Made by a program: the position numbers and the translations under genes. Shown piece by piece: positions 11,201-64,000 of a DNA stretch of 64,000 bases (position 1 is the first letter of the stretch; each line of letters begins with the position of its first letter). The notes under the pieces were generated by a model, which was not told the DNA's origin, did not search any database, and saw only the letters and a list, made by a program, of their open reading frames with translations. The DNA comes from Candidatus Shapirobacteria bacterium. Its GTDB lineage: Bacteria > Patescibacteriota > Microgenomatia > UBA12405. Location: contig JBAZTV010000002.1 in the NCBI GenBank assembly GCA_041661765.1, positions 74,212 to 138,211 of the forward strand, in the 5' to 3' direction.

Positions 11201-11201
11201 A

Positions 11202-13615: not shown

Positions 13616-13637
13616 TTCAAAATGATATCATATATTA

Positions 13638-14051
13638 ATGAATCACAGAGTTGTATTCTTCTTATGTATTCTTTTAATAGTGGGTTGGGTATTTTATTTC
13701 AAATTAAAACCAAATAATTTTTCTCTGCTTTTAAATTTTAAACAACCCACACCAGTTTCTCCTGTCTATTATTTAAAAACAACCAGAGAACAAATACAAT
13801 CCTTATTCATTATGGGCAACAGAGATTCATCTGAATGGAATTTTACCTTATCTCAAAAAAGAGCCCTAGAATCCCAAATACTTTGTGACCATAAATTGTC
13901 AGATTTAGGAAATAAACAATTATCACTGGCTCAAAAATATTATAAAACTGGAACATCTTATTTAAACAATCTTATTGATAAAATTGATACCAACTATCTA
14001 TCACAAGAAAAGGAAAAAACTGAAAATTTGATAAAAAATACTTGTAAATAA
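13638..14051 (+). CDS. Hypothetical small membrane-anchored protein (one N-terminal TM).
   Basis: 137-aa ORF with a clean ATG. It fills the gap between flanking genes and has no motif I recognise. Confidence 0.5.
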   Translation: MNHRVVFFLCILLIVGWVFYFKLKPNNFSLLLNFKQPTPVSPVYYLKTTREQIQSLFIMGNRDSSEWNFTLSQKRALESQILCDHKLSDLGNKQLSLAQKYYKTGTSYLNNLIDKIDTNYLSQEKEKTENLIKNTCK

Positions 14052-14056
14052 ATAAT

Positions 14057-15824: not shown

Positions 15825-15847
15825 GATAAGATATTAAATATCTTAAA

Positions 15848-20876: not shown

Positions 20877-20909
20877 TATAGCTTAATTAAATGTTAACAT
20901 TATACAAAC

Positions 20910-47547: not shown

Positions 47548-47551
47548 TTTA

Positions 47552-49015: not shown

Positions 49016-49611
49016 CAAAATTCATCTTCGATTTAGACGGAACAGTAACATCACAAGAAACATTACCTTTAATATCAAAGCATTTCAATATATCAAAAGA
49101 AATAAATAAAATAACAAAAGAAACTATCCAAGGTAATATTCCTTTCGTTGAAAGCTTCATAAAACGAGTCCATATTTTAGGGAAACTACCAGTTGATGAA
49201 ATTTGTGAATTACTTGAAAAAACTGAATTGTACCCTCAAATAATTTGTTTTATAAAAAAAAATAAAAAGAATTGTGTAATAGCCACAGGAAATTTAGATT
49301 GTTGGGTTGAAAAACTTGTTAAAAAAATTGGATGCCTTTCATACACTTCCAATGCCAACGTAGAGAATAATCACGTTACTAAAATAACACAAATTATTAA
49401 AAAAGAAGATATTGTTAAACAATATAAAAATTTAGGAGAAAAAGTTGTATTTATTGGCGACGGAAACAATGACATGGAGGCCATGAGACTCGCAGATGTT
49501 TCAATTGCTTGTGGTTTAACTCATAAACCAGCCAAAAGTATACTTACTATAACCGATTATTTAGTTTTTAATGAGGAGGCACTATGTCGACAACTAAATC
49601 AGTTATTATAA
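49012..49611 (+). CDS. HAD-superfamily phosphatase, phosphoserine-phosphatase (SerB)-like.
   Basis: FIFDLDGTVTSQE (motif I DxDGT), IGDGNNDMEAM (motif IV). Confidence 0.75.
   Translation: MTKFIFDLDGTVTSQETLPLISKHFNISKEINKITKETIQGNIPFVESFIKRVHILGKLPVDEICELLEKTELYPQIICFIKKNKKNCVIATGNLDCWVEKLVKKIGCLSYTSNANVENNHVTKITQIIKKEDIVKQYKNLGEKVVFIGDGNNDMEAMRLADVSIACGLTHKPAKSILTITDYLVFNEEALCRQLNQLL
49573..49579 (+). promoter_or_regulatory. Strong Shine-Dalgarno sequence GAGGAGG, 5 nt upstream of the ATG at 49584.
   Basis: aatGAGGAGGcactATG. This is the strongest RBS in the window; it lies inside the 3' end of the HAD gene. Confidence 0.5.
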
Positions 49612-50225
49612 GTTGTGCCGGAATAGGTTCAAGGCTCGGCTTAGGTCAAACTAAAGCTTTAATCGATATTGCTGGAAAATCTCTAATTCGTTGGCAATTA
49701 GAACTATTGGATAGTATAAAAGATATAAGAATTGTTGTTGGATATCAATCTAATGATGTTATTAAAGAAGTTTTAAAAATCAGAAAAGATGCAATTTTTA
49801 TCTACAATCATAATTATTTTGAAACAAAAACAGGTGCTAGTTTTTATTTAGGATCAAAAGACGCAAATGAATATGTTATAGAATGGGATGGTGATTTACT
49901 TGTGCATCCTGAAGATGTTAAAAAATGTTTACAAATGGATCAGGAATATATTGGTTACAGTGACAAAGTTTCTGATGAATCTGTTTATGTTAAAACAAAC
50001 AATGAAGGGGATGTTTTAAGTTTTTCAAGAGAAAACGGTGATTACGAATGGACAGGTCCAGCATGTATTAGAAAGAATAAAGTTAAATATACATCTGGTA
50101 ATGTTTTCAATCAACTTGAAGAATATTTACCAATGAAAGGATTAAAAATACGAGCACAAGATATTGATACTTACGATGACTACAAAAAAGCGATAGAATT
50201 TATTAAAAGTTGGCAAAAAAAATAA
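49584..50225 (+). CDS. LicC-like nucleotidyltransferase (CTP:phospho-alcohol / sugar-phosphate cytidylyltransferase).
   Basis: VIISCAGIGSRLGLGQTKALIDIAGKSLIRWQLELL...RIVVGY parallels LicC AAGLGTRL...PKAL...PLIEYQIEFL...IVGY. Confidence 0.7.
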   Translation: MSTTKSVIISCAGIGSRLGLGQTKALIDIAGKSLIRWQLELLDSIKDIRIVVGYQSNDVIKEVLKIRKDAIFIYNHNYFETKTGASFYLGSKDANEYVIEWDGDLLVHPEDVKKCLQMDQEYIGYSDKVSDESVYVKTNNEGDVLSFSRENGDYEWTGPACIRKNKVKYTSGNVFNQLEEYLPMKGLKIRAQDIDTYDDYKKAIEFIKSWQKK

Positions 50226-50227
50226 TA

Positions 50228-50944
50228 ATGAATGTACTTTTTTTAGATCAATTTAAAAAAAAATATTTCAATTTAATATTGAAATACCCCTTCATTGTAA
50301 ATTATATCGCAAATAAACAATCACAAAACTACTGGATAAACCAAAAAAATTGGCGTGTAAAAGACATTTTTTATAAAAGAGCAATCAAACAAGAACAATT
50401 TCTTAAAAAAAACTTCATTCCCCTCCTTAATAAAAATTCTATTATTTGTGATCTTGCTTGTGCTTGTGGCGATTTTGCTTTTATTGTGGCTCCATTTGTT
50501 AAAAAAATTGAAGGATTCGATTTATCTTCTAAAATGGTTAAATTAGCAAATAAAACGGCAAGAGATAAAAAAATCAACAATACTCATTTTTATGAAGCTA
50601 ATATCAATAACTATTTCTTTAAAAGAAAATATGACCACTTTATGTGTTTAGGTCTTTTTACATATATCTTTAACAATAAAGATGCTAATAATATTATTAA
50701 AAAAATTTCAGATTCTATTAAAATAAACGGTTATTTAGTCATAAAAGACACCTTAACAACAGAAAAAAATAACATAATCCATCTCGTATTTAATGATCCA
50801 TATTCAGCAAATTACAGATCCAAAAAAGAATATCTTAAACTATTTAAAGAAAAAAACTTTTCTTTTATTAAAGAAACAAAACTATCAAAAGGAAACGATG
50901 ATCGTTTTTTTAGTTATTGTGCAATTTTTCAAAAAACAAAATGA
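50228..50944 (+). CDS. Class I SAM-dependent methyltransferase.
   Basis: ATG at 50228; the track start at 50210 is TTG. ICDLACACGDFAFIV (motif I), EGFDLSSKMV, INGYLVIKD. Confidence 0.65.
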   Translation: MNVLFLDQFKKKYFNLILKYPFIVNYIANKQSQNYWINQKNWRVKDIFYKRAIKQEQFLKKNFIPLLNKNSIICDLACACGDFAFIVAPFVKKIEGFDLSSKMVKLANKTARDKKINNTHFYEANINNYFFKRKYDHFMCLGLFTYIFNNKDANNIIKKISDSIKINGYLVIKDTLTTEKNNIIHLVFNDPYSANYRSKKEYLKLFKEKNFSFIKETKLSKGNDDRFFSYCAIFQKTK

Positions 50945-51657
50945 AAAAAAATGAAGTTATAGGAATAATTGGTGGAGCAGGTGTTGCAGCCACTAATAAA
51001 TTAAATGAACTTATTGAAAATATTTTTACTCTAAATGGCGCCTTTAGAGACATGCATCATCCTGAAATTATTATTTATCAAGCCACAAAAGCACCTTCAA
51101 GAAGTATGTATCTTGAAGGCAAAGGGGAATCATTTATTAGTGATTACATTAAAATTGGTAAAAAACTTAAAAGTGCGGGTGCTACAACTCTTTGTATGAG
51201 TTGCAACACAGCTCATTATGCTATAGACGAAATTCAAAATGAAGTTGGTTTGCCTTTTATCAATCTAATTGAAGAGGTTGTTTCCGAAATTAAAAACACA
51301 AATCAAAAAAAAATTGGACTAATTGCTTCAGATGGATGTTTAATGGGTAAGGTTTACGAAAAATATTTTGATAAAATTTATCCTGAAGCTAAAATCATTT
51401 ACCCAGACAAAATTTTTCAGCAAGAAGTAACTAGGGGAATTTGCAATATTAAAAATATCAACAGGTTTAAAGAAGACTCCAGTCTAGACAGACCAAAAAA
51501 TATTTTTACCAATGTGAGTAAACATCTAATTAAAAAAAATGCCGACATAATTTTAATCGGATGTACTGATATAAGAGTAGATTATTTTAATCAAAACTCT
51601 GTTGATTCATTAGAAGTTTTAGCAAAAAAAATTTATCAAAAAACATATGAAAAATAA
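50941..51657 (+). CDS. Asp/Glu/hydantoin-racemase-family enzyme (aspartate-racemase-like).
   Basis: VIGIIGGAGVAAT, GKGE, MSCNTAHYAIDEIQ and IILIGCTDI match the two catalytic-Cys motifs (CNTAH / GCTE) of aspartate racemases. Confidence 0.75.
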   Translation: MKKNEVIGIIGGAGVAATNKLNELIENIFTLNGAFRDMHHPEIIIYQATKAPSRSMYLEGKGESFISDYIKIGKKLKSAGATTLCMSCNTAHYAIDEIQNEVGLPFINLIEEVVSEIKNTNQKKIGLIASDGCLMGKVYEKYFDKIYPEAKIIYPDKIFQQEVTRGICNIKNINRFKEDSSLDRPKNIFTNVSKHLIKKNADIILIGCTDIRVDYFNQNSVDSLEVLAKKIYQKTYEK

Positions 51658-52285
51658 CGATGCTTTAATTTTTTTTAAAAATATGTCAAAAAACAAATCG
51701 CTTAACCCCAATTCACTTAAATTGGCAAAAAATAGTGATTTTTCTACAATCGATGCTAAATTTATTTTAAGTCACACAAATAAAAATACAAAAATTCTCG
51801 ATCTAGGAAGTGGAAGTGGTCTTGTTATTAATAAAATTAATGACAAAGTAAAACATATTTTAGCTGTTGAACCTTTTGTTGAATTTACAAAATATATAAA
51901 CACAAACACTAATATTACTATTATAAATAAAGATATCTTAAATTTTAAAACGAACGAACTTTTTGACTTGGTTACAATGTTCGCTGTTGTTCAATATTTT
52001 AATCAAGACGAAATCGTAAAAATTTACACCAAATACAAAAATAATTTAAAAACCAATGGCAAATTAATAATAAAAGGCCAATTTGGAGTAGAGGATGATG
52101 TCATAATTTCTGGTTATTCAGATGAACTAAAAACTAATTATTATTCACAATATCGTCACTTAAATAAAGAAATCGATATTTTAAGAAAAATAGGATATAA
52201 AAATATCGAAGTAGTAGATATATATCCACCAGAGTGCAATCGTTGGAAGAATACCCATTTCTATGCAATAATTGCAGAAAAATAG
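51647..52285 (+). CDS. Class I SAM-dependent methyltransferase.
   Basis: ILDLGSGSGLVINKI (motif I), ILAVEPF, GKLIIKG. Confidence 0.7.
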   Translation: MKNNDALIFFKNMSKNKSLNPNSLKLAKNSDFSTIDAKFILSHTNKNTKILDLGSGSGLVINKINDKVKHILAVEPFVEFTKYINTNTNITIINKDILNFKTNELFDLVTMFAVVQYFNQDEIVKIYTKYKNNLKTNGKLIIKGQFGVEDDVIISGYSDELKTNYYSQYRHLNKEIDILRKIGYKNIEVVDIYPPECNRWKNTHFYAIIAEK

Positions 52286-52304: not shown

Positions 52305-53402
52305 ATGATCAAATTTCTAGATCTTTATAAAATAAACCAACAATACAGAAAAGAAATAAATAAAGCCATTAATCAAGTTTTAGACTCCGGCTATTATATT
52401 TTAGGTCAAGAAGTTAAAAACTTTGAAACAAATTTTGCTAATTGTATTGGAACAAAATATTGTATTGGCACCGCCAATGGACTAGAAGCGCTCACATTAA
52501 TTTTAATGGCCTATAAGGAATTAAATATCCTAAAAGATAATGATGAAATAATTGTTCCAGCCAATACTTTTATAGCCTCAATTTTAGCTATCTCTCAAAA
52601 TAATCTAACTCCAGTTTTGGTCGAACCAGATATAAATACATACAATATTAATCCTGATCTTATTGAAGAAAAAATAACCAAAAAAACAAAAGCTATTATG
52701 ATAGTCCACTTATATGGCCAAACTGTAGAAATGGACAAAATTTGGAAATTAGCCAAAAAATATAATTTAAAAATTATAGAAGATTCGGCACAAGCTCATG
52801 GATCAAAATATAAAAATAAAATGGTCGGAAACCTTGGTGATGCTTCTGGTTTTAGTTTCTATCCGGGAAAAAATTTAGGAGCCATTGGAGATGCTGGCGC
52901 AATTACAACCAATGATAAAAAATTAGCCGACACAATTAGGGCAATTGCTAATTATGGTTCTTCTGAAAAATATGTGAACATTTATAAAGGAATAAACAGT
53001 CGACTCGACGAAATTCAAGCTGCAATTCTTAATATAAAACTTAAATATTTGGATTCCGATAATAATAAAAGACGCATTGTTGCTAAATATTATTTGGACA
53101 ATATTAAAAATCAGAAAATAACTTTACCAAATATAACCGATTTCAATGAGCATAATTTTTACGTCTTTGTAATCAGAACAAAAAATAGAAATCAATTGCA
53201 AAAATATTTAGAAAATAATGGAATTGGATCCTTAATTCATTATCCAATTCCACCCCATAAACAACAAGCATATAAAGAATGGAATAAATTAAATTTACCA
53301 ATTACAGAGCAAATTCACAATGAAATTCTAAGCATCCCCATTAGTCCAGTTTTGACCCAAAATGAAGTGAAAAAAATCGTAAAAGTCTTAAACAATTTTT
53401 AA
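52305..53402 (+). CDS. DegT/DnrJ/EryC1/StrS-family PLP-dependent sugar aminotransferase (FdtB/QdtB-like).
   Basis: [62 protein letters not shown]...[10 protein letters not shown]. Confidence 0.85.
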
Positions 53403-53405
53403 AAT

Positions 53406-53858
53406 TTATTTTTGTTTTGCAGGATTACCAACAACTATCAAACCAGGTAAAACATCTACAACAACTACACTTCCAGCTCCTACCATAGAACCTTCACCGA
53501 TAGTTACTCCAGGTAAAATAGTAGCATTTGCACCAATTGAAGCACCCTTTTTAATTAAAATCCTTTCTTTTTTCCAATTTTTGTTTCCAGACTTTGGATA
53601 TCTATCATTACAAAAAGTCACATTTGGTCCAACAAAAACATCATCTTCAATTGTAATCCCATCCCAAATTTGAACCCCAGATTTAATAGTTACATTATTC
53701 CCAATTACAACTTCATTCTCAATAAAACAATGCGAACAAATATTACAATCATTACCTATTTTTGCATCAGGTAATACAACACAAAATTGCCAAATTCTTG
53801 TACGCTCACCAATTTTTTTACTATCAACAATTGCAGTAGGGTGAATATAAATATCCAT
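53406..53858 (-). CDS. Left-handed beta-helix (hexapeptide-repeat) sugar N-acetyltransferase (FdtC/QdtC/WxcM-N-like).
   Basis: Repeating [LIV]G-x4 hexapeptides: [67 protein letters not shown]. Confidence 0.8.
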
Positions 53859-53860
53859 AA

Positions 53861-54265
53861 TTATTTTATTAATTCTTCAAAAAATGTATCATCGGGAGAC
53901 CATTCAGTGTCAGTATAATTTAATAGTGAAGCTTTTTTACTTAAATTTCTAAAAGAATGAGCTATATTTGGACCAATCTCCAATCTTGTATATTTATCTG
54001 ATTTACTATCTATAATAATTCTAACTATTTCACCAGTTTTCATATCTTTCAAAACTACTTCTACTTTTCCAGTTACCAATCCAAACCATTCTCTCCATTT
54101 TTTATGATAATGATTACCTCTAACGACATTGGACTTACCAAAAGTAACAAAATATATCTGCCCAAATTCCTTAAATTCTTTTTTTAAATCTGAATCTCTT
54201 AAAAAGACTACTAAATGACCTCTTTTGTCATCATGTTTTTCAATAAAATCAATTTTATAATCCAT
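53861..54265 (-). CDS. FdtA/WxcM-C-like cupin: dTDP-4-keto-6-deoxyhexose 3,4-ketoisomerase.
   Basis: ATG at 54265 (MDYKIDF); the track start at 54331 is further upstream and probably non-[13 protein letters not shown]...[28 protein letters not shown] matches the FdtA RG..H.HKK pattern. Confidence 0.75.
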
Positions 54266-54314
54266 AACACTTCCATTATAGCAATAATGATAAAATTCAT
54301 AAACAAATAGACAT

Positions 54315-55880
54315 ATGAAAAAGAAAATCATCTCTTTCCTAAATAAATACTGGATTTTACTGTCATTTTTATCAATTTTTACAATCTACATACTACCGGT
54401 TTGTTTTCAAAACAACAATAATTTAAACCTAGTTTCCGCTGAACATATTGATAGTGGTTCTATCCTCGGCAGTATCATGCAAATGAATAGCAAAAATACA
54501 CCAAACTCTTTTTATAATCAAAATATTCCATACCACACCGGCTTTTATGGCTACCCCTACAATAGTATTGTATTTTGGAGCTTCAAATTCGAAAAAATAT
54601 TTTTCAGATCATATGCCAACATTAATTTTTATATTTTTCCATTAATTGCAAAATTATTAAATTTTATTTTTGCTTCATTTTCAATAATATATCTGTATCA
54701 ACTATCAAGAAAAATCCTAAAATATAATCTATCAAGAATTTTATTACTTTCGCTTTTCATAATTTTCCCCGAATATCTTCATTACGTTTTTCATATTAAG
54801 CCAGATATTTTAGGTTTATTATTTTCAATAATATCCCTAAATTACTTATATGATTATTTACAAAATTCTAAAAATAATAAAAATATAATTAAAGCCAATG
54901 TTTTTGGCGGACTATCTATTTTGTGCAAACAACCACACATATTTATAATTTTCCCTTTATTAATAGGGTTCGTTTCTTCTTTAAAAGGTAACCTAAAAGA
55001 AAAACTTTCCATTTTTTTTAAAACATATTTATACTCTGGAATAATTTTTCTATTTTTATTTTTTATTATTCACCCCTATGCCTTCCTGGAACTAAAAGCA
55101 TTTTTAGCAAGACAAATATTGATGACAAGTATGACATCCGCCAGTTATATCGATAATATTAACTTTTGGTTGCCAACATTTATCGGGGATCCATTACTCT
55201 TTATCTTTGTATTCACTCCATTTATTTTTATATTATTAAATTTATTTAAAAAGTTTCGCAATAAAACAACACTATTTTTGTTATTAATTTCAACATATAT
55301 TATTAGTTATCTTTTATGGTTAACCCTAAAAGTTGGCCCAATGCGATTTATTCATTACTTAATTCCGGTTTTTCCTTTTTCAATTTTAATTTTTTCTTAC
55401 ATTTTTGACTTTTTTTTCAATAAAACATTTTGCTCAAAATCTAAAATCAACCAAATATTTTATCTAACTATTTTTATAACGGTTTTTTTATTATCAGTAA
55501 AAACCATCAACTATACAATTATTAAAACCAAAAATATTATACAATCGCCCTATGATTTTCAAAAAACAGAAACATACAAAGCCACCAAAAAGTTTGAAAA
55601 AGAATTCAGTAATGAGCAATTAAATAAAAAAACAATAATTTACTCGATATCCTTACCAGTAAACGATACCCTATATGAAAATTCTATCAACACTTGGCAG
55701 GTTAATGAAAAAGTTGTTAATGAATTAAAACCGGAATATCTTTTCATTGATTTCACTGTTTATTGGGAAAAACCATATGAATATTGGGAAAAAATTGCTA
55801 AACAAAACGAATTGAACAAAGAAATGTTGTTTATAGACAATTTTGATAAAGAAAAAAATATAGTTCTTTTCTACAAATAA
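54315..55880 (+). CDS. Polytopic membrane protein, possibly a distant family B member (GFYGYPYN motif).
   Basis: 521 aa with 12+ TM. AEHIDSGSILGSIMQMN...NIPYHTGFYGYPYN echoes HDDM...GQIP...GFGYGYPLF. Divergent from 53861-54265, with only 49 bp between them. Confidence 0.6.
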   Translation: MKKKIISFLNKYWILLSFLSIFTIYILPVCFQNNNNLNLVSAEHIDSGSILGSIMQMNSKNTPNSFYNQNIPYHTGFYGYPYNSIVFWSFKFEKIFFRSYANINFYIFPLIAKLLNFIFASFSIIYLYQLSRKILKYNLSRILLLSLFIIFPEYLHYVFHIKPDILGLLFSIISLNYLYDYLQNSKNNKNIIKANVFGGLSILCKQPHIFIIFPLLIGFVSSLKGNLKEKLSIFFKTYLYSGIIFLFLFFIIHPYAFLELKAFLARQILMTSMTSASYIDNINFWLPTFIGDPLLFIFVFTPFIFILLNLFKKFRNKTTLFLLLISTYIISYLLWLTLKVGPMRFIHYLIPVFPFSILIFSYIFDFFFNKTFCSKSKINQIFYLTIFITVFLLSVKTINYTIIKTKNIIQSPYDFQKTETYKATKKFEKEFSNEQLNKKTIIYSISLPVNDTLYENSINTWQVNEKVVNELKPEYLFIDFTVYWEKPYEYWEKIAKQNELNKEMLFIDNFDKEKNIVLFYK

Positions 55881-55920: not shown

Positions 55921-57189
55921 TTATATTTTAGGATTTATCGTTATATTTTTTAAAAAACCATTTAAAACTCTTTTTATATAATCCATCCTTTCTTTATTAA
56001 TTCCTGGCCAAACACCCAACCAAAAAGCATTATTCATAATAATATCCGACTCTTTCATTTCTCCAACGATCCTAAAATTATCTCTAATTTTTATATAAGC
56101 TGGATGACGAAGCAAATTTCCTGCAAAAACATTTCTTGTTCCTATTTTATTTTTTTCTAAATATTCAGTTAATTCATTCCTTGTAAATGGAGCATCTTTT
56201 TTTACTACTAATGGAAACCCAAAAGGGGACAAGTCCACTTTTTCATCCTCTCTCATCAGGGTAAAATATTTTTCATATTTATTAAAAAAATTATATAAAA
56301 TCTTATAGTTCTCTTGTCTTTTCTTAATAAATTTTGGCAATTTTTTTAATTGAGCCAATCCAATTGCTGCCTGAAAATCAGTTAATTTTAAATTATATCC
56401 TACCTCAGAATAAATATATTTATGGTCGTAACCATAAGGTAATTCTCCTAACTGCCATTTAAATCGATTTTTACAAGAATCATCTTTGCCAGTTCCACAC
56501 CAACAATCTCTACCCCAATCCCTAAAACGTCTAATTGATTTATTAATTAATGGATCGTTGGTAATAATCGCTCCACCTTCACCCATGGTAATATGATGAG
56601 CTGGATAAAAACTAAAAGTTGCAATATGACCAAAAGTACCTAAAATTTTACCATCATACTTTGACCCTAAAGCGTCACAACAGTCTTCAATTAACCACAA
56701 ATCATATTTTTTAACCAACTTCATAATTTCTGTAAGATCAAAAGGTTTTCCTAAAGTATGAGCAATCATTATTAATTTAGTTTTATTGGTTATTGCCGCT
56801 TCAATTTTCTTTGGGTCAATATTAAGAGTGTCTGCCTCGGCATCAATAAACACCGGTTTCAAACCATGCTGAATTCCCGGATTTACAGTTGTTGGAAAAG
56901 ATACAGGAGTAGTTATAAATTCATCTCCTACTTTAAGCCTCTTCTCACCAAAAATATCTGATGTCAGCGCCGCTAATGCTACTAAATTTGCCGAAGATCC
57001 AGAATTAACTAATGATACAAATTTAATTCCTAAATATTTTTTAAACTCTTCTTCAAATTTTAAAGCGAATTCTCCCTCTGTCCACCAACCATCTTTCGCT
57101 ACTTTTATAGCATTATTAATTTCTTCCTTATCAAAAACTTTACCAGAAACTGGTATATAACTTTCACCTGGTGTAAATTTTTTATTCAT
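55921..57189 (-). CDS. RfbH/DdhC(E1)/ColD-like PLP/PMP-dependent NDP-4-keto-6-deoxyhexose 3-dehydrase.
   Basis: GKVFDKEEINNAIKVAKDGWWTEGEFALKFEEEFKKYLGIKFVSLVNSGSSANLVALAAL matches the RfbH N-terminal region closely. 422 aa. Confidence 0.8.
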   Translation of the reverse strand: MNKKFTPGESYIPVSGKVFDKEEINNAIKVAKDGWWTEGEFALKFEEEFKKYLGIKFVSLVNSGSSANLVALAALTSDIFGEKRLKVGDEFITTPVSFPTTVNPGIQHGLKPVFIDAEADTLNIDPKKIEAAITNKTKLIMIAHTLGKPFDLTEIMKLVKKYDLWLIEDCCDALGSKYDGKILGTFGHIATFSFYPAHHITMGEGGAIITNDPLINKSIRRFRDWGRDCWCGTGKDDSCKNRFKWQLGELPYGYDHKYIYSEVGYNLKLTDFQAAIGLAQLKKLPKFIKKRQENYKILYNFFNKYEKYFTLMREDEKVDLSPFGFPLVVKKDAPFTRNELTEYLEKNKIGTRNVFAGNLLRHPAYIKIRDNFRIVGEMKESDIIMNNAFWLGVWPGINKERMDYIKRVLNGFLKNITINPKI

Positions 57190-57199
57190 AAAATTAATT

Positions 57200-58141
57200 T
57201 TAAAAATTTAATTTTTCATCAACAATATAAACAGGTCTATTTTTTGTTTCTTCAACTATTACCTGAACATATTTACCTATTATACTCAATGCCATTAAAT
57301 TTAATCCACCAAAAAACACCACCGCTAACATAATTGGAATTGATGCATTAATTGGATTGCCAAAAACAAATACTGTAAATAAATACCCAATAATAAACAA
57401 AAATGAAAGTATTGTTAAAATAAAACCAAAATAAACAATCAAATCTAAAGGAAGATAAGAAAAGCCAAAAATTCCTCTTTCTGAATGTTTTAAATAATCA
57501 AAAAAACCACCATAAGAGCTTTTGCCATTTTTTCTATCGCACCTTTGGTAGGAAACGAAAGTTTTTTTAAAACCAACCCAAATACTTAACCCTCTACCAA
57601 ACCGAAATTTTTCTGGAAGAGATCTTATAGCAGTAACTATTTTTTTATCATATAATCCAAAACCAGAAACATTAACAGGTATATCGATATTAGATATTCT
57701 TCTAAATAATCCATAAAATGACTTTCTCATTAAAGTCATAAAATAAGAATTATCACTTGCCTTCTCGTATTGAGCCAACACTAGATCGTATTTATTTTCC
57801 CATTGTTTTATTAATTTTGGTATTAATTCAGGTGGATCTTGCAAATCACAAGGTAACATTATCAAAGCATCTAATTCTTCATTCGCAAAATCCATAACTG
57901 CCTGGCTAGAAGCTTCTGGCCCAAAATTTCTGGATAAAAAAACTCCTCTTACTTTTTTATCTCTCTTTATAAGAGTACTTATTTTTTCTCTAGTCTTATC
58001 AATACTTCCATTATCAACAAACAAAAAACTAAATTCGTAATTTTTAATTTTACTAATTATTTCTATAGTCTTTTCATACATTTCCAAAACATTTTTTTCT
58101 TCATTAAAACATGGAATACCAATAACTATTTTTTTATTCAT
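57200..58141 (-). CDS. GT2 polyprenyl-phosphate glycosyltransferase (GtrB/ArnC/DPM1-like) with two C-terminal TM helices.
   Basis: IVIGIPCFNEEKNVLEMY...FLFVDNGSIDKT...DLQDPPELIP, plus a C-terminal TM pair. Confidence 0.85.
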   Translation of the reverse strand: MNKKIVIGIPCFNEEKNVLEMYEKTIEIISKIKNYEFSFLFVDNGSIDKTREKISTLIKRDKKVRGVFLSRNFGPEASSQAVMDFANEELDALIMLPCDLQDPPELIPKLIKQWENKYDLVLAQYEKASDNSYFMTLMRKSFYGLFRRISNIDIPVNVSGFGLYDKKIVTAIRSLPEKFRFGRGLSIWVGFKKTFVSYQRCDRKNGKSSYGGFFDYLKHSERGIFGFSYLPLDLIVYFGFILTILSFLFIIGYLFTVFVFGNPINASIPIMLAVVFFGGLNLMALSIIGKYVQVIVEETKNRPVYIVDEKLNF

Positions 58142-59024
58142 TCTTGATTAATAAATTAGGATTAATAATTGATTTATTAGATAAATAATATCTATATAAA
58201 TCTTTTATAGCTACTTCTATTTTTGTCAATTTTAAATTTTTAATTTCTTTTTTAAGAAGATCATTATTTGAAGTATATTCTTTATTTAGACCATTTTGTT
58301 TTACAATTATTGGTAAAGAATAATTATCCAATTTATTAATTTCTTTTGCTAATTCAAGCAAACTATATTTATTACCACTTCCAACATTAAAAAATTTTTC
58401 TTTTAGATCATTCTTAATAAAATATTCTATTATTTTCATAAAATCATCAATGTAAACATAATCAAATTTACAATCCCGAATCAAAGTTAAAGGCATTTTA
58501 TAGATATATTTGCAAAGTAAATTAGAAATAAATTTAATTGTAAAATCTTCATATTTTCCAAAAACTCCAAAAATTCTCAAACAATAAATATTAGTTGAAT
58601 TTTCAATATACTTTGAACAAACATATTTATAAAAACCATAATCATCACTAGGAATATTCAAACCAAAATCTGATTCTTTTACATTTATAATATCTTTCGA
58701 TTTACCATATTCAGCCCCAGAACCAAAATGAATCATTTTTTTAAAATAGTTTTTGTTTTTTACAATATTAAAAAACATTTTTAAATTATTTTTAATCGAA
58801 TCATTCAAAACCATACTATTTCTCAATCCACCAATATTGGCTGTATGAATTACTACGTCTATCTTATTTTTTTTAAAAAAATTATCAACTGCCACTGTAT
58901 CCAAAAGATCCAACTCTTTATGCGAAGGACTTAAAATTTTATACTTATCCTTAAAACATTCAACAAAATTTCTCCCAATAAATCCCGTTCCACCAGTTAA
59001 AAAAATTGTTTCAATTTTATTCAT
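58134..59024 (-). CDS. NAD(P)-dependent sugar epimerase/dehydratase/reductase (extended SDR).
   Basis: IFLTGGTGFIGRNFVE (GxxGxxG), catalytic YGFYKYVCSK (YxxxK). Confidence 0.8.
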   Translation of the reverse strand: MNKIETIFLTGGTGFIGRNFVECFKDKYKILSPSHKELDLLDTVAVDNFFKKNKIDVVIHTANIGGLRNSMVLNDSIKNNLKMFFNIVKNKNYFKKMIHFGSGAEYGKSKDIINVKESDFGLNIPSDDYGFYKYVCSKYIENSTNIYCLRIFGVFGKYEDFTIKFISNLLCKYIYKMPLTLIRDCKFDYVYIDDFMKIIEYFIKNDLKEKFFNVGSGNKYSLLELAKEINKLDNYSLPIIVKQNGLNKEYTSNNDLLKKEIKNLKLTKIEVAIKDLYRYYLSNKSIINPNLLIKNE

Positions 59025-59071
59025 CTACTGAGTATATCAAAATAAAATATCTTGTTATAATAATCCTACCA

Positions 59072-59962
59072 ATGTCAAAAGAAAAAAGTATTAAAAAAAC
59101 AAATATTGCCATAATTGGATCAGGAAACATCGGATGTGACCTTTTAATTAAAATTAATAGATCGAAAGTTTTAAAATGTAATAGATTTATCGGGCAAAAT
59201 AAAGATTCAGATGGTTTACAAATGGCAAAATCATTGGGAATAAACACTTCGTTTGATTCAATTAATGAAATAATTAAAAATCCCGATTGCTGCGATATTG
59301 TATTTGATGCTACATCTGCAGATGCTCATAAAATTCACGCCCCAATACTTAAAAAACTCAATAAATTTACTATAGATATGACTCCATCAAGAATAGGAAA
59401 AATGTGTGTGCCATATTTAAATTTAGATGAATGTTTAAAAGAAAAAAACGTAAATATGATCACTTGTGGAGGACAAGCAACCACACCAATAATATCAACA
59501 ATAATGAAAGTTCATCCTGAAACAAAATATGTAGAAATTGTATCCAGTATTTCATCAAAATCTGCCGGAATTGGAACCAGAAATAACATTGATGAATACA
59601 CCCAAACAACTAGCGATGCAATAAAAATTTTAGGAGGAGCACCAAAATCAAAAGCCATAATTATTCTAAACCCTGCTGAACCTCCAATATTAATGCACAA
59701 TACTATTTTTGCCCAAATAGAAAACCCTAATATTGCAAAATTAGAAAAAGAAATTAATTTAACAGTTAATGAAATTCAAAAATATATACCAGGGTATAAA
59801 TTAACACTAGGCCCAGTTTTTGAAAATAATCGATTAACAGTAATGATAGAAGTTACTGGGCAAGGAGATTTTTTGCCTATTTATGCTGGTAATTTAGATA
59901 TTATAAATTGTGCCGCAATCACGGTAGCTGAAAACTATGCAAAAAAATATCTTAATAATTGA
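59072..59962 (+). CDS. Acetaldehyde dehydrogenase (acylating), DmpF/MhpF-like.
   Basis: ATG at 59072; the track start at 59006 is TTG. IAIIGSGNIGCDLLIKINRS...SDGLQMAKSLGI...VFDATSADAHKIHAP...IDMTPSRIGKMCVPYLNLDE tracks DmpF nearly motif for motif. Confidence 0.8.
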   Translation: MSKEKSIKKTNIAIIGSGNIGCDLLIKINRSKVLKCNRFIGQNKDSDGLQMAKSLGINTSFDSINEIIKNPDCCDIVFDATSADAHKIHAPILKKLNKFTIDMTPSRIGKMCVPYLNLDECLKEKNVNMITCGGQATTPIISTIMKVHPETKYVEIVSSISSKSAGIGTRNNIDEYTQTTSDAIKILGGAPKSKAIIILNPAEPPILMHNTIFAQIENPNIAKLEKEINLTVNEIQKYIPGYKLTLGPVFENNRLTVMIEVTGQGDFLPIYAGNLDIINCAAITVAENYAKKYLNN

Positions 59963-60983
59963 TTCAACACTAAGAGATGGCTCTCACGCTATGAGTCATC
60001 AATTTACAGCTCAAAATATTTCTGATTATGCCAAAGGTGCAGAATTAGCGGGAACAAAAATTTTAGTAGTTGGTCATGGAAATGGATTAGGAGCTTCGTC
60101 ATTACAACTAGGACAATCACTTTTAAGTGATAAAAAAATGCTCACCACTGCAAAAAAAGAATTAACAAAAACAAAATTAGCTGTACTCCTTATACCTGGA
60201 TACGGAACAATAAAAGAAAATATTGAACCCGCAATTTCCTATGGCATTGATGTTTTAATAGTCGCTTCACATTGTACTGAAGCTAATATCACCAAACAAC
60301 ACATCCAATATGGATTAAATAAAGGATTAGAAGTATATGGTGTTTTAATGATGTCTCACATGATTTCAGCTGATTTATTACTCAAACAAGCCTTACTCAT
60401 GCAGGAATATGGAGTAAAAGGAGTAATATTGATGGATTCCGCTGGTGCTTATCTTCCAGAAGATGTAACTAAAAAAATATCATCTTTAGTAAAAGGTTTA
60501 AAAATAGAAGTCGGATTTCACGCTCATAATAATTTAGGGTTAGCCATAGCTAATTCTTTAACTGCTATAAAAGCAGGGGCCACAATTTTAGACGTCACGT
60601 CTCGAGGACTTGGAGCAGGCGCAGGAAATTGTCAATTAGAAGTATTGGCTGCCATTCTTCAAAAAATGGATATAAAGACCAATTTAGACTTATACAAATT
60701 AATGGACAACAGTGAAAATATTATTGCCAAATTAATGAAACATCCACAAGTAATAAATAATGTTACTCTCACTAGCGGATTAGCTGGAGTATTTTCCGGA
60801 TTTGCTCCTCATGTAATAAAAGCTGCTAATAGATTTAATGTCGATGCTAGAGATATTCTGATAGAATTAGGAAAAAAGAAAGTAGTTGGTGGGCAAGAAG
60901 ATATAATTATTGACGTAGCTACCTTTTTGAAACAAAAAAAAGATTTAAAAGAAAATAATTGTAATATTGAATCATTACAATAA
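59937..60983 (+). CDS. 4-hydroxy-2-oxovalerate aldolase-like (DmpG/MhpE; HMGL-like TIM barrel).
   Basis: ILIIDSTLRDGSHAMSHQFTAQNISDYAKGAELAGTKILVVGHGNGLGASSLQLG compared with DmpG LYISDVTLRDGSHAIRHQYS...VAHGDGLQGSS. Overlaps the dehydrogenase gene by 26 bp, the same order as dmpFG. Confidence 0.8.
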   Translation: MQKNILIIDSTLRDGSHAMSHQFTAQNISDYAKGAELAGTKILVVGHGNGLGASSLQLGQSLLSDKKMLTTAKKELTKTKLAVLLIPGYGTIKENIEPAISYGIDVLIVASHCTEANITKQHIQYGLNKGLEVYGVLMMSHMISADLLLKQALLMQEYGVKGVILMDSAGAYLPEDVTKKISSLVKGLKIEVGFHAHNNLGLAIANSLTAIKAGATILDVTSRGLGAGAGNCQLEVLAAILQKMDIKTNLDLYKLMDNSENIIAKLMKHPQVINNVTLTSGLAGVFSGFAPHVIKAANRFNVDARDILIELGKKKVVGGQEDIIIDVATFLKQKKDLKENNCNIESLQ

Positions 60984-61004
60984 TTAATAATTTAATAAAA
61001 ATTT

Positions 61005-62780
61005 ATGACTGTCAGTGAATATATAATGGATTTTTTAGTTAGTAAAGGCGCTAATACTATTTTTATGGTAACCGGAGGCCAAGCCATGTGGCTTGACGAT
61101 GCAGTCTGTAAAAATAAAAAAATAAAATATATTTGCACCCACCATGAGCAATCAGCCGGAATGGCTGCCGAGGCTTATGGAAGAATTACAGGTAAAATGG
61201 GGGTTGCTTTAGTTACTGCGGGACCAGCAGCCATAAATGTATTAAATGGAGTCGTCGGAGCATGGACAGATTCATCACCAATGATGGTTATTTCCGGACA
61301 AGCACCTTTAACACATGTTCAATATCAACAAAAAACCAAAATTCGTCAATACGGTATTCAAGGAATAAATATTAAACCATTAGCAGAAAAAGTTGTGAAG
61401 TTTTTTATCACAGTAGATGATCCATCACTGATTAAATATTATTTACAAAAAGCATATTATTTAGCCACTTCAGGAAGAGTAGGACCTGTTTGGATTGATG
61501 TTCCACTTGATATCCAAAATACCACCGTTCCAGAGAAATTTCTAAAAGAATTTATTCCTGAAAAAGAAAACATTAACAATAATGATTTAAAATCCAAAGT
61601 TGCTGAAACTTTAAAACTAATCAAAAATGCTAAGCGCCCAATTATTTTAGCTGGTCAAGGAGTAAGAAATGGAAAAGCTGTCGATAAATTCTACAAACTA
61701 ATCGACGAAATACCCATGCCAGTTTTAACATCAAGATTAGGTATAGATTTAATTAATAGCGATCACAAACTTTATATAGGTAGACCTGGAAATTACGGGG
61801 AAAGATCAGCCCATTTTGCTATTCAAAATTCCGATCTAATTATTGTTTTAGGAAGTCGTTTAGCCACTGCACTGGTTGGCCATAACCCTAAAGATTTTGG
61901 GCGAAATGCTAAAAAAATTGTAGTAGATATCGACGAAGAAGAATTAAATAAACCAGGTGTAGATTTACATCTTAAAATAAACTCTGATATAAAAATTTTC
62001 TTAAACGAATTATTAAGCCAAGCCAAATCAGTTGAATTGCCAAATTTTAAAAATTGGATAGATAAATGCAATGAGTGGAAAATAAAATATCCAGTCGTTT
62101 TGCCTGAATATAAAAAAGAAAAACCAATTAATTCATACTATTTTACTCAAAAATTATCAGAACTAGCCTCTCCAAAAGACATGATTATGGTTGATACTGG
62201 ATCTTGTTTTCATATAGTTTGTCAAACTTGGAAAATTAAAAAAGGACAAAGATTTTTAACAACTGGAGGAATTTCCTCAATGGGTTATTGGGTAGCTGGT
62301 TTAGGTGCATGTGCGGCCAATAATTATAAAAATACTATTGTTATTACTGGAGACGGAAGTTTACAAATGAATATTCAAGAATTTGCCACAATAAAACACA
62401 ATAAATTTCCAATTAAAACCTTTATATTTAACAACAATGGATATTTATTAATTCGACAAACTCAAAAAAACTTTATGGAAGGCAGATTGATGGGTGAAAG
62501 TCCAGAAACAGGAGTTTGGTGTCCAGATTCAATAAAAATTGCCAAAGCTTATGGAATAAAGGCTGTAAAAATAAGTTCTATTGATAATATGGAAAAAAAG
62601 ATAAAAGAAGTATTGGACTATCCAGGGCCAGTCGTTTGTGAAGTCATAACACCACCTTGGCAATTAATAATTCCAAGAACTGCTTCTACTAAAAATGAAG
62701 AAGGGAAATTGATTTCTAAACCATATGAAGATATGTTTCCATTTTTAAGCAAAGAAGAACTTGATTCAAATATTTTATAA
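61005..62780 (+). CDS. Thiamine-diphosphate-dependent enzyme of the acetolactate-synthase/YerE-like family.
   Basis: 591 aa. The N-terminal Pyr domain (MVTGGQAMWLDD...HHEQSAGMAAEAYGRITGKMGVALVTAGPAAINVLNGVVGAWTDSSPMMVISGQ) and the C-terminal PP domain (ITGDGSLQMNIQE) are both present. Confidence 0.85.
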   Translation: MTVSEYIMDFLVSKGANTIFMVTGGQAMWLDDAVCKNKKIKYICTHHEQSAGMAAEAYGRITGKMGVALVTAGPAAINVLNGVVGAWTDSSPMMVISGQAPLTHVQYQQKTKIRQYGIQGINIKPLAEKVVKFFITVDDPSLIKYYLQKAYYLATSGRVGPVWIDVPLDIQNTTVPEKFLKEFIPEKENINNNDLKSKVAETLKLIKNAKRPIILAGQGVRNGKAVDKFYKLIDEIPMPVLTSRLGIDLINSDHKLYIGRPGNYGERSAHFAIQNSDLIIVLGSRLATALVGHNPKDFGRNAKKIVVDIDEEELNKPGVDLHLKINSDIKIFLNELLSQAKSVELPNFKNWIDKCNEWKIKYPVVLPEYKKEKPINSYYFTQKLSELASPKDMIMVDTGSCFHIVCQTWKIKKGQRFLTTGGISSMGYWVAGLGACAANNYKNTIVITGDGSLQMNIQEFATIKHNKFPIKTFIFNNNGYLLIRQTQKNFMEGRLMGESPETGVWCPDSIKIAKAYGIKAVKISSIDNMEKKIKEVLDYPGPVVCEVITPPWQLIIPRTASTKNEEGKLISKPYEDMFPFLSKEELDSNIL

Positions 62781-62845
62781 GTGAAGATCTAAAAGATTAG
62801 AGTTTAGAAGAAAAAATCAAAAATGAATTAAAATAAATTATTTAT

Positions 62846-64000
62846 ATGAATAAAAACATTAAAAATTTAAATGATGAAATTTTTACTTTAAATGCAGAAT
62901 TTAGTGCTGATACAAGAGTAGACAAAATTAATGGAGGAATAGGAATATACCTTGACAACATAGGACAACCTTTTGTTATTCCTATTGTAAAAAAAATCGC
63001 CTCCTCGCTAGATTTTTCAAACTTTAATTACTTACCAATAAGTGGTGATCCAGTCTTTTTAGAAGAATCGTCTAAACTTGTTTTAGGAAATAGTTTATAT
63101 AAAGAATATAAAAACAAAATTATTAAACAGGGAACAGATGGAGGAACAAATGGACTTTTTATTTGGGCAAGTTTAATAAAATTTACAAATCCAAATCCTA
63201 CAATAATAGTTAGTAATCCTACATGGGAAAACCACAAAAAAATCTTCAAACACTGTGGTTTTAATGTTGTTGAATATAATCATATTAATAAATTAGGATT
63301 TTTTGATTTTGAATCTTTCCAAAAAACTATTTCTAAATATCCAGATTCTTTTATTCTTTTTCATGGAGGATCAACTCATAATCCCACAGGTGTAAATCCC
63401 TCAACTGAAGAATGGAAAAAAATATCTCAAATAACCAAAAAAAATAATAATTATGTTTTATTTGATTTTGCTTATTTAGGCTTGGGAGAAAATATAGAAA
63501 AAGACTCTTTTCCAATAAGACATTTTCTTGAAAAGAAAAATAAAATAGCTGTTGTGATTTCATATTCAAAAAATATGACTTTATATCAACATCGGGTCGG
63601 AGTTTTACTTATACCAACACTTAAAATAAAAGCAAAAGAAAACAATGAAACAATCATTAAATATTTATTTAGATTGGTCAATCAAACTCCAACCGCTTTT
63701 GGTGAAATCATAGTAAAAAATGTATTGAGTAACCAAGAATATAAAAAAGAATGGATAAAATCATTATCTGAAATGAATAAAAACATTCAAAAAAGACGTG
63801 AATTATTTAATCAATATACCAACAACCTGTTTTCTGAAGTTGTACACCAAAAAGGCTTGTATAGTTTACTAAAAATCACTCCAAAACAAACAAAAATATT
63901 AAAAAACAAACACGGCATCTATCTTCTTTCCACCGGACGTATTAACTTTGGAGGATTGGCTATTAATAAAATTCCAAAATTAACCGAAGCTATAAATTCT
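62846..64000 (+). CDS. Class I aspartate/aromatic aminotransferase (AspC/TyrB-like), 3'-truncated at the window edge.
   Basis: ATG at 62846, open through 64000. Absent from the ORF track because no stop falls in the window. GIGIYLD, HNPTGVNPSTEEW, FDFAYLGLGE, SYSKNMTLYQHRVG and RINFGGL match AAT family I signatures. Confidence 0.8.
   Translation, partial: MNKNIKNLNDEIFTLNAEFSADTRVDKINGGIGIYLDNIGQPFVIPIVKKIASSLDFSNFNYLPISGDPVFLEESSKLVLGNSLYKEYKNKIIKQGTDGGTNGLFIWASLIKFTNPNPTIIVSNPTWENHKKIFKHCGFNVVEYNHINKLGFFDFESFQKTISKYPDSFILFHGGSTHNPTGVNPSTEEWKKISQITKKNNNYVLFDFAYLGLGENIEKDSFPIRHFLEKKNKIAVVISYSKNMTLYQHRVGVLLIPTLKIKAKENNETIIKYLFRLVNQTPTAFGEIIVKNVLSNQEYKKEWIKSLSEMNKNIQKRRELFNQYTNNLFSEVVHQKGLYSLLKITPKQTKILKNKHGIYLLSTGRINFGGLAINKIPKLTEAINS

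Follow-up and report, generated by a model that had tools for sequence, protein, structure and literature searches.

What does a bacterium of the candidate phyla radiation build with an enzyme that removes the 3-hydroxyl group of a nucleotide sugar, and where does the sugar go from there? These questions are raised by three adjacent minus-strand genes at 55921–59024 in a 64,000-nucleotide stretch of DNA from Candidatus Shapirobacteria (contig JBAZTV010000002.1, positions 74,212 to 138,211), which we refer to as the window. The initial annotation described them as an RfbH/DdhC-like 3-dehydrase, a short-chain dehydrogenase/reductase (SDR) and a GtrB/ArnC-class transferase, and suggested that together they load a 3,6-dideoxyhexose onto polyprenyl phosphate. 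We find that in this member of the Patescibacteria (Microgenomates group) some ten genes most likely form one bidirectional module, of which these three are the half on the minus strand, and that the module very probably makes an acyl-branched 3,6-dideoxyhexose. On balance, we favor an account in which a sugar of the erwiniose type would be built by the module and handed to a lipid carrier.

The dehydrase

The open reading frame (ORF) listing places three minus-strand ORFs exactly within the limits first given: a dehydrase gene at 55921–57189 (422 residues), a family 2 glycosyltransferase (GT2) gene at 57200–58141 (313 residues) and an SDR gene at 58134–59024 (296 residues). The SDR and GT2 genes overlap by 8 nucleotides, a gap of 10 nucleotides separates the GT2 gene from the dehydrase gene, and all three products have strong family matches, far beyond chance, such that the description of the genes themselves stands.

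The dehydrase matches PF01041 (E = 1e-96) and scores 628.9 bits against the NCBIfam RfbH equivalog NF011936, the cut-off of which is 423. Its match to the E1 dehydrase of Yersinia pseudotuberculosis (PDB 3BCX) reaches 482 bits over residues 3–408, compared to only 202 bits for ColD, and the segment FYPAHHITMGEGG is the same in the dehydrase and in E1. Does the enzyme have the residues that the chemistry requires? The position of the Schiff-base lysine of aminotransferases is occupied by a histidine, H198, which aligns with H220 of E1, the position marked by the H220K mutant structure 3BB8. The protein has five cysteines in total, and four of them (C171, C229, C231 and C239) align with C193, C251, C253 and C261 of E1 in a CX57CX1CX7C spacing that is exactly that of the E1 [2Fe–2S] motif; these four ligand positions and this motif are reported for the E1 cluster by Agnihotri et al. 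2004. ColD has no cysteine at the cluster positions in the same alignment, and the nucleotide-sugar context here is one of CDP-glucose (cytidine diphosphate glucose) genes, unlike the GDP-sugar (guanosine diphosphate sugar) context of ColD.

The combination of a histidine with four cluster cysteines that are absent from ColD argues that this enzyme is neither ColD-like nor a lysine-dependent aminotransferase, and we predict that 55921–57189 encodes a true E1/RfbH-type 3-dehydrase, dependent on pyridoxamine phosphate (PMP) and a [2Fe–2S] cluster and acting on CDP-4-keto-6-deoxyglucose. The RfbH/DdhC-like assignment of the initial annotation is thus borne out, and its ColD-like alternative is not supported, given the cysteine motif. 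The test proposed for telling the two apart, a histidine for ColD and, for E1, a histidine-to-lysine swap with the [2Fe–2S] cysteine motif, was misstated; E1, SpnQ and ColD all have histidine in place of lysine, and it is the [2Fe–2S] cluster, present in E1 and SpnQ only, that discriminates (PMC8987622). In a related contig, L088, the E1/RfbH orthologue (8797–11475) is 892 residues long, because its sequence is interrupted by an intein that includes a homing endonuclease of the LAGLIDADG type (Pfam matches Intein_splicing and LAGLIDADG_3).

Probable branched-sugar chemistry in a divergent operon

The view that the product is a plain 3,6-dideoxyhexose depended on where the annotated piece ended, since the cut at 59024 left out the genes that match the erwiniose module. 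Only 47 bp from the SDR gene (59025–59071, a divergent intergenic region presumed to hold the promoters of both operons), a second operon begins on the opposite strand and spans 59072–64012. Its first gene (59072–59962, plus strand) encodes a putative acylating acetaldehyde dehydrogenase of the DmpF/BphJ/ErwJ type, with 392.8 bits against TIGR03215 (cut-off 282), 254 bits to DmpF (1NVM_B) and the catalytic-cysteine motif ITCGGQAT kept. The second (59937–60983, plus strand, 348 residues) encodes a putative 4-hydroxy-2-oxovalerate (pyruvate) aldolase of the DmpG/BphI/ErwI type, with 392.3 bits against TIGR03217 (cut-off 286), 263 bits to DmpG (1NVM_A) and both the RDGxH and HAHxN motifs. The third (61005–62780, plus strand) encodes a thiamine diphosphate (ThDP)-dependent enzyme that matches all three expected domains (PF02776, PF00205 and PF02775), has the GDG...NN motif in the form ITGDGS...NNNGY and falls under every NCBIfam acetolactate-synthase cut-off. 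Its best PDB match by far is JanthE (8RPH; 374 bits, with the runner-up at 255), a characterized YerE-like carboligase that accepts ketones, and we describe it as a YerE/ErwE-like carboligase. A search of a plasmid collection for clusters annotated as YerE-like yielded ilvB alone, at some 30% identity. The fourth gene (62846–64000, plus strand), which continues past the end of the window, encodes an AspC/TyrB-type class-I aminotransferase to which we return below.

Where does the CDP-sugar come from? A tblastn search of the window with 80 homologues found neither DdhA nor DdhB. The ThDP enzyme and the GT2, when looked up by exact sequence, led to a contig, L081, that is 100% identical to window positions 56363–64000 and extends 8.8 kb further (an exact look-up of the dehydrase gave no matches); the start of the DmpF-like gene at 59072 is as called on this identical contig. 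Located there, from 21 bp to 1.8 kb past the window end and both on the minus strand, are genes for a DdhB-like SDR (CDP-glucose 4,6-dehydratase-like; equivalent to 64021–65028; best model TIGR02622, 201 bits) and for DdhA (glucose-1-phosphate cytidylyltransferase; equivalent to 64989–65768; TIGR02623, 279 bits compared to a cut-off of 300). By these family matches, the CDP route is encoded at positions equivalent to 64021–65768. The ThDP gene lies 3.8 kb from the E1 gene, with DdhA and DdhB within 3 kb of it on L081.

This gene set has a published counterpart. Steitz et al. 2022 described the erwiniose genes of Pectobacterium atrosepticum, in which ErwJ yields acetaldehyde, ErwI yields 4-hydroxy-2-oxopentanoate, ErwE adds 4-hydroxy-2-oxopentanoate to CDP-3,6-dideoxy-4-ketoglucose while rejecting pyruvate, and ErwF reduces the side chain (PMC9306805). 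The match of the DmpF-like, DmpG-like and ThDP genes to this set suggests that the window encodes the E1 step together with an ErwJ/ErwI/ErwE-like trio, with the SDR in the position of ErwF. Assignment of the product as an acyl-branched sugar is the part of this reading that we hold most firmly; that the donor for the ThDP enzyme is the four-carbon donor 4-hydroxy-2-oxopentanoate is a somewhat better than even prospect. The likely product would then be a 10-carbon, erwiniose-like 4-C-(1,3-dihydroxybutyl)-3,6-dideoxyhexose and not a plain dideoxyhexose.

What, then, does the SDR reduce? The protein matches PF01370 (E = 2e-27) and has a TGGTGFIG motif for NAD and a YxxxK motif, but it matches RmlD and Fcl weakly and the CDP-paratose synthase of Salmonella at 27 bits, on which ground we rejected its assignment as an orthologue of the latter. 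After ThDP-dependent ligation, C4 is a tertiary alcohol and the remaining ketone is in the side chain, and it is there that an SDR would act. The SDR gene adjoins the ThDP gene in five related loci (L002, L005, L021, L089 and L091). Given the chemistry and the fact that its family keeps strictly to loci with ThDP genes, the probable target of the SDR is the ketone of the side chain, in a YerF/ErwF-like role, rather than C4 as proposed earlier.

Recurrence of the module

The module is not peculiar to this genome. We compared 80 loci with E1-related genes (50–74% identity, from many phyla), with their ORFs clustered by family, and refer to loci by serial handles. DdhA is found in 52 of the 80 and DdhB-like SDRs in 67, and a YerE-like ThDP gene accompanies E1 in 39. 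Both DmpF and DmpG are present in six of these 39 (L002, L004, L011, L033, L048 and L074) and in none of the 41 loci without the ThDP gene, and the six span Gammaproteobacteria, Roizmanbacteria, Elusimicrobia, Methanoregula, Bryobacteraceae and Fibrobacteres. In a rough neighbor-joining tree, the window ThDP enzyme clusters with those of the aldolase-carrying loci L002, L004, L033 and L074. The SDR family of the window occurs in eight loci, all of them ThDP-carrying, and in 0 of 41 without ThDP (p = 0.002), and for the GT2 family the counts are 20 of the 39 loci with ThDP and 3 of the 41 others (Fisher p = 1.5e-5); these statistics ignore phylogenetic non-independence. The GT2 gene stands directly beside a module gene in 9 of the 24 loci that carry it, the window included. 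Overall, the pattern recurs across some ten phylum-level groups.

Closer relatives (L086–L093) were reached via homologues of the SDR and the aminotransferase. Two of them, L087 and L088, mirror the window: DdhA and DdhB are followed by an operon running DmpF, DmpG, ThDP, aminotransferase on one strand, which faces a second operon running SDR, GT2, E1 and two polytopic membrane proteins. In L092, everything stands in a single collinear string (DdhA, DdhB, DmpF, DmpG, ThDP, aminotransferase, SDR, GT2, GT2, YfhO, E1 and an AftD-like GT-C enzyme), and 9 of these 12 proteins (all but the first GT2, YfhO and the AftD-like enzyme) are 41–70% identical to their counterparts in the window or L081; similar gene strings are found in L075, L033, L088 and L089. 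The aldolase pair itself appears exchangeable: L089 and L090 have an Ldh_2 enzyme in its place, and L091 has an HpcH/HpaI aldolase with PfkB and a DHQS-like gene, replacements that suggest different 2-oxo-acid donors on the same chassis.

The related loci hold further variations. A DmpG-like aldolase of 582 residues with a C-terminal MptE-like (PF01973) fusion is encoded in L086 (2040–3788), L087 (7351–9099) and L088 (4338–6086); the window copy has no MptE-like domain. L002 and L004 each have two YerE-like ThDP genes, of different clades, and two GtrB-like GT2 genes, a doubling that suggests two different branched sugars with separate lipid-carrier transferases. A transketolase split into N- and C-terminal subunits is found in eight E1 loci (L006, L008, L009, L015, L042, L061, L071 and L078), all of which, except for L006, are without a YerE-like enzyme; such a pair may provide another ThDP-dependent way of making two-carbon branches.

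A lipid carrier for the branched sugar?

The GT2 gene brings us to the fate of the sugar. Its product matches PF00535 (E = 3e-22), and residues 5–309 align with residues 28–328 of Synechocystis GtrB (5EKP) at 206 bits (E = 9e-60), compared to 77 bits for ArnC and 57 bits for DPMS. Hydropathy places hydrophobic segments at about 223–261 and 264–288, consistent with a C-terminal membrane anchor, and the full-length alignment to GtrB supports the initial placement of this protein among polyprenyl-phosphate transferases. Among NCBIfam models, the best match is to PgfS at 208 bits (cut-off 500), with ArnC at 97.5 bits (cut-off 529), both far below their cut-offs. The DXD motif (residues about 95–100) reads PCD where that of GtrB reads DAD, with the second aspartate alone kept, and most GT2 homologues that accompany E1 and ThDP genes among loci L002–L092 have also lost the first aspartate (AAD, MAD, MSD, VAD and others). 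In L016 and L042, which have no ThDP genes, the motif stays DAD or DGD. Loss of the first aspartate may be the signature of a different nucleotide donor. An analogy to the ArnB/ArnC/ArnA/ArnT system was considered and dropped, given the ArnC score and a pyridoxal phosphate (PLP) enzyme that is a dehydrase and not an aminotransferase.

A partner for the GT2 may lie next door. The gene at 54315–55880 (plus strand, convergent with the dehydrase gene) encodes a membrane protein with no Pfam match and no local homologue, even among the PMT_2 proteins of the window; of its 19 remote homologues, 8 match PMT_2. The AlphaFold model of the protein (pLDDT 88, pTM 0.89) retrieves GT-C enzymes for all of the top 21 Foldseek matches in the PDB (among them STT3, ALG9, DPY19, ArnT, PglB, Emb and Pmt4, at TM scores of about 0.5), and Asp46, in the first extracytoplasmic loop, is invariant. 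The predicted structure supports the earlier suggestion of a GT-C enzyme, and the protein is a candidate user of a lipid-linked sugar with a divergent GT-C fold. This GT-C-fold neighbor, together with the YfhO and AftD-like genes of L092, supports a polyprenyl-phosphate intermediate that is used by a GT-C enzyme. As to whether the cargo on that carrier is the CDP-branched sugar, gene order and co-occurrence point in this direction, and we regard the question as evenly balanced.

An E1 dehydrase with no E3 in sight

E1 dehydrases are associated with a dedicated reductase, E3, and the initial annotation had remarked that no such partner was nearby. The remark holds over a much wider area. A scan for plant-type [2Fe–2S] motifs gave nothing credible in the window and the 80 related loci; the same regular expression detects RfbI, the E3 of the Salmonella rfb locus (L094), which served as a positive control. 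A tblastn search with Salmonella RfbI over 1.69 Mb (the window, L001–L093 and an Azospirillum rfbFGH locus) found its own locus alone and nothing else at E < 0.1. Taken together, these searches found no E3 within the window or the 8.8 kb that follow it, nor, the Salmonella control aside, among 95 related and comparison loci, and a motif scan found no small ferredoxin-like ORFs in the window or L081. Flanks of the full 10 kb on both sides were available for 45 of the 80 E1 loci. An E1 without E3 is the rule in the examined set. The same is seen in a cultured alphaproteobacterium: plasmid p1 of Azospirillum sp. TSH100 (L095, 7945–13240) has an annotated rfbF–rfbG–rfbH set without E3 within 10 kb, which indicates that E3-less E1 loci are not confined to metagenome bins.

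How would such an enzyme receive its electrons? SpnQ functions with general ferredoxin/ferredoxin reductase or flavodoxin/flavodoxin reductase pairs, without a dedicated E3 (PMC8987622), a precedent showing that a dedicated E3 is not obligatory. By analogy, we infer that the electrons for the E1-type dehydrase would be supplied by a general reductase.

An aminotransferase without a role in the published scheme

The aminotransferase at the end of the plus-strand operon (388 residues on L081, where its gene runs to position 7650) matches PF00155 and PRK09257 (301 bits) and keeps both the catalytic lysine and the two substrate-binding arginines (equivalents of AspC R292 and R386). About 70 homologues were found at 47% identity or more, and all of the named ones are from the candidate phyla radiation, after which identity drops to 30–36% for housekeeping enzymes; the clade is so far found in candidate-phyla-radiation genomes only. 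It is linked to ThDP or aldolase genes in L087, L088, L091, L092 and L093, and is carried by none of the 80 E1-related loci. We had considered that this might be a housekeeping gene or the boundary of the island, an idea that we dropped given its conservation in the module across candidate-phyla-radiation genomes.

Two hypotheses for its function can be offered. The aminotransferase might make oxaloacetate from aspartate, with the aldolase decarboxylating oxaloacetate to the pyruvate enolate; class II pyruvate aldolases do have oxaloacetate decarboxylation activity (PMC5065237). Alternatively, it might make another 2-oxo-acid donor for the ThDP enzyme, a type of route that is mentioned by Steitz et al. 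(PMC9306805). In L091, an archaeal-type phosphoenolpyruvate carboxylase (PEPcase_2; 9159–10661) stands directly beside the aminotransferase, and both enzymes are able to make oxaloacetate.

A proposed pathway

How might these parts work together? In the pathway that we propose, DdhA and DdhB would make CDP-4-keto-6-deoxyglucose, from which the E1-type dehydrase would strip the 3-hydroxyl group by means of PMP and its [2Fe–2S] cluster, with electrons from a general reductase, to give CDP-3,6-dideoxy-4-ketoglucose. In parallel, the DmpF-like enzyme would convert acetyl-CoA to acetaldehyde, and the DmpG-like aldolase would join acetaldehyde to pyruvate to yield 4-hydroxy-2-oxopentanoate. The YerE/ErwE-like ThDP enzyme would decarboxylate 4-hydroxy-2-oxopentanoate and add the resulting four-carbon unit to the C4 ketone of the sugar, and the SDR would reduce the new side-chain ketone, leaving CDP-linked 4-C-(1,3-dihydroxybutyl)-3,6-dideoxyhexose. 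The GtrB-like GT2 would then move the branched sugar onto polyprenyl phosphate and, after flipping, a GT-C enzyme, of which the protein of 54315–55880 is the prime candidate, would attach it to a surface polymer or protein. The sequences themselves show gene identities, catalytic motifs, synteny and co-occurrence; the specificities for donor and acceptor, the target of the SDR, the acceptance of a CDP-sugar by the GT2 and the source of electrons are inferences. A fuller version, in which a GtrB-like enzyme accepts a CDP-sugar, electrons come from a source other than E3, the aminotransferase feeds in oxaloacetate or an alternative 2-oxo acid and the GT-C enzyme decorates the surface, is one that we offer only tentatively, as doubtful in its entirety.

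Several observations weigh against the pathway. The likeness to ErwE, ErwF, ErwI and ErwJ is one of gene set and family, compared by description, and the donor specificity of a ThDP enzyme is not legible from its sequence; the closest solved relative, JanthE, is promiscuous. Many of the loci behind the co-occurrence statistics are from Acidobacteriota. The GT2 family is absent within 10 kb in 19 of the 39 ThDP-carrying loci, and L086 holds the SDR and E1 genes without it. The window has two other GT2s with C-terminal hydrophobic segments and some nine GT-C-like genes; with several candidates on each side, the pairing of this GT2 with 54315–55880 is one of adjacency alone. Neither an E3 nor a small ferredoxin-like ORF was found for E1 in the window or L081, and the published erwiniose scheme offers no step for the conserved aminotransferase. 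Finally, we know of no characterized GtrB-class enzyme that uses a CDP-sugar; the known ones take UDP-sugars (uridine diphosphate sugars) or GDP-sugars.

This last point lends weight to the idea that the branched CDP-sugar is made but that the GT2 is a generic GtrB/CsbB-type enzyme that charges glucose or N-acetylglucosamine (GlcNAc) from UDP, with a soluble GT2 or GT4 transferring the branched sugar. The best matches of the protein, PgfS in NCBIfam and GtrB in the PDB, fit such a function, as do the loci that make do without this GT2 and the supply of at least 12 other glycosyltransferases, along with the two membrane-tailed GT2s, in the 64-kb island; moreover, the published erwiniose scheme uses an ordinary glycosyltransferase (PMC9306805). 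Against a generic transferase stand the tight fit of the gene between the SDR and E1 genes, the 13-fold enrichment of its family in ThDP-carrying loci, its place inside the collinear pathway strings of L075, L088, L089 and L092 and the loss, in most pathway-linked members, of the first DXD aspartate that GtrB keeps, a loss that hints at another donor. We consider this explanation unlikely, although it deserves to be kept in mind. If the divergent genes belonged to unrelated metabolism, E1 and the SDR could still make a plain paratose- or abequose-like sugar by reduction at C4, for the GT2 to load onto the lipid. In the classical arrangement an SDR gene comes after that of E1, as in the Salmonella locus, where CDP-paratose synthase follows rfbH, and the two reductases are of similar size (296 versus 279 residues). 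The faint match between them speaks against this, as does the confinement of the SDR family to ThDP-carrying loci, often beside the ThDP gene; the DmpF, DmpG and ThDP genes accompany E1 across six or more phylum-level lineages, in L033, L074 and L092 in collinear order, and the gene set is that of the published module (PMC9306805). A plain dideoxyhexose is therefore improbable.

Could the dehydrase, being without E3, instead act without reduction, either in a ColD-like hydrolytic manner, in which glutamate regenerates PMP, or in the manner of a sugar aminotransferase? Every locus examined other than that of Salmonella is without E3, SpnQ shows aminotransferase activity when its reductase is omitted (PMC8987622), and the class-I aminotransferase that is conserved in the module of candidate-phyla-radiation genomes might be linked to amino-group cycling. 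Yet the catalytic histidine and the four cysteines that ColD does not have are strictly conserved, E1 has no transaminase activity under the SpnQ conditions (PMC8987622), E3-less E1 homologues are the norm in related loci, mostly without this aminotransferase, and the known products of YerE-type enzymes are all 3,6-dideoxy sugars. We judge a non-reductive dehydrase to be very improbable, and return to the erwiniose-type pathway as the account that we prefer.

Relation to known systems

The erwiniose cluster of P. atrosepticum SCRI1043 is the nearest parallel, as it groups the same five functions (E1-type dehydrase, YerE-like ThDP enzyme, NAD(P)H reductase, BphI/DmpG-type pyruvate aldolase and BphJ/DmpF-type acetaldehyde dehydrogenase), with CDP-glucose genes adjacent (PMC9306805). 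The module here differs in that it embeds a GtrB-like transferase and GT-C enzymes, has the extra AspC/TyrB-type aminotransferase and has no E3 nearby, and its host belongs to the candidate phyla radiation, for which a lipopolysaccharide (LPS) O-antigen or exopolysaccharide (EPS) like that of Pectobacterium cannot be assumed. The yersiniose A pathway of Y. pseudotuberculosis (DdhA–D, YerE and YerF) shares an E1 with identical catalytic and cluster residues and the logic of ThDP-dependent C4 branching followed by side-chain reduction, but Yersinia uses pyruvate, giving a two-carbon branch, and a dedicated E3 (DdhD), whereas the aldolase/dehydrogenase pair here points to a four-carbon donor and E3 is absent. 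SpnQ of the spinosyn forosamine pathway is, like the window enzyme, an E1 homologue with a [2Fe–2S] cluster and no dedicated E3 (PMC8987622); its substrate is a dTDP-2,6-dideoxy (deoxythymidine diphosphate-linked) sugar in actinomycete secondary metabolism, and the CDP-specific E1 of Yersinia is a far nearer relative of the window enzyme.

On the lipid-carrier side, an anchored GT2 with an adjacent GT-C-fold partner is the arrangement of GtrA/GtrB/GtrC, CsbB/YfhO, ArnC/ArnT and PgfS/PgfM, and the operon of L092 includes genes for both YfhO and an AftD-like GT-C enzyme. Those three-component systems carry glucose, GlcNAc, 4-aminoarabinose (Ara4N) or mannose from UDP or GDP donors; here, by contrast, the genes are coupled to a pathway for a CDP-linked acyl-branched dideoxy sugar, PCD stands in place of the DXD motif and the PgfS and ArnC scores fall far short of their cut-offs.

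The surrounding island

The module is part of what is, across the whole window, a glycosylation island. Some nine genes of this island are GT-C-like and 12 or more encode other glycosyltransferases, along with radical-SAM/B12 enzymes, methyltransferases, an ABC-2 exporter and a flippase. The GT-C, SDR and aminotransferase proteins match NCBI entries from a metagenome-assembled genome of Candidatus Shapirobacteria at 100% identity. The DNA is AT-rich (GC about 28%), which makes a promoter and terminator scan uninformative (34 promoter-like sites compared to 24 expected), and an Rfam scan of the window found no RNA families. At 12014–25816, there are eight polytopic membrane proteins (7–11 predicted transmembrane segments) that match PMT_2, PMT, GT87 or PTPS_related, a number of GT-C-like paralogues that is striking for a reduced genome. 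Two paralogous radical-SAM proteins (29411–30910 and 36576–38090, the second with a B12-binding domain) lie amid methyltransferases and glycosyltransferases and may serve to C-methylate sugars or to alter them by other radical reactions. The ABC-2 permease (42923–43723) is split from its ATPase (45600–46355) by genes for a GNAT acetyltransferase, a DUF4230 protein and an NYN-domain protein (a putative RNase), inserts that are unusual for a polysaccharide exporter pair.

Closer to the module, the region 47507–52285 begins with a 502-residue protein that has an N-terminal tandem heptad repeat, NLIEEKN, and no Pfam match; after it come a HAD hydrolase, a MobA/IspD-like nucleotidyltransferase, a pair of methyltransferases and a member of the Asp/Glu racemase family, which together make up an uncharacterized activation and modification module. 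Beside it, 52305–54331 encodes a DegT aminotransferase (plus strand), an LbH N-acetyltransferase (minus strand) and an FdtA/WxcM-like cupin (minus strand), and looks, from these families, like a module for a nucleoside diphosphate (NDP)-3-acetamido-3,6-dideoxyhexose of the Fuc3NAc/Qui3NAc type. This DegT protein (52305–53402), the other one of the window, looks like an ordinary aminotransferase by its NCBIfam scores. No RmlA or RmlB was found in the window or the 8.8 kb beyond, and with the CDP-glucose enzyme as the sole 4,6-dehydratase nearby, the 52305–54331 branch might also start from a CDP-sugar.

Outlook

The core chemistry of this module was already described in 2022 (Steitz et al., PMC9306805). 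New here are the coupling to a lipid carrier, the presence of the aminotransferase, the lineage of the host and the systematic lack of E3; neither the lipid-carrier link nor the extra aminotransferase is in the published scheme (PMC9306805), and a limited literature search found no mention of a lipid-carrier route for acyl-branched sugars. With E3 not adjacent to any of the roughly 90 E1 homologues that we examined, the question of what reduces E1 in most organisms becomes a sharper one. The recurrent coupling to GtrB-like and GT-C enzymes predicts both a lipid-carrier route and a member of the GtrB class that uses a CDP-sugar. If this prediction is true, the enzyme would be, to our knowledge, the first polyprenyl-phosphate glycosyltransferase to depend on a CDP-sugar.

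Among cultured bacteria, a few are known to have acyl-branched sugars such as yersiniose, erwiniose and caryophyllose in their LPS, EPS or lipooligosaccharides. With the full gene set in bacteria of the candidate phyla radiation, and with relatives in at least ten phylum-level lineages, including methanogens, acyl-branched-sugar chemistry may be a widespread form of surface decoration. For Candidatus Shapirobacteria itself, an investment of more than 64 kb in glycosylation within a reduced genome suggests that surface glycans are central to an episymbiotic lifestyle.

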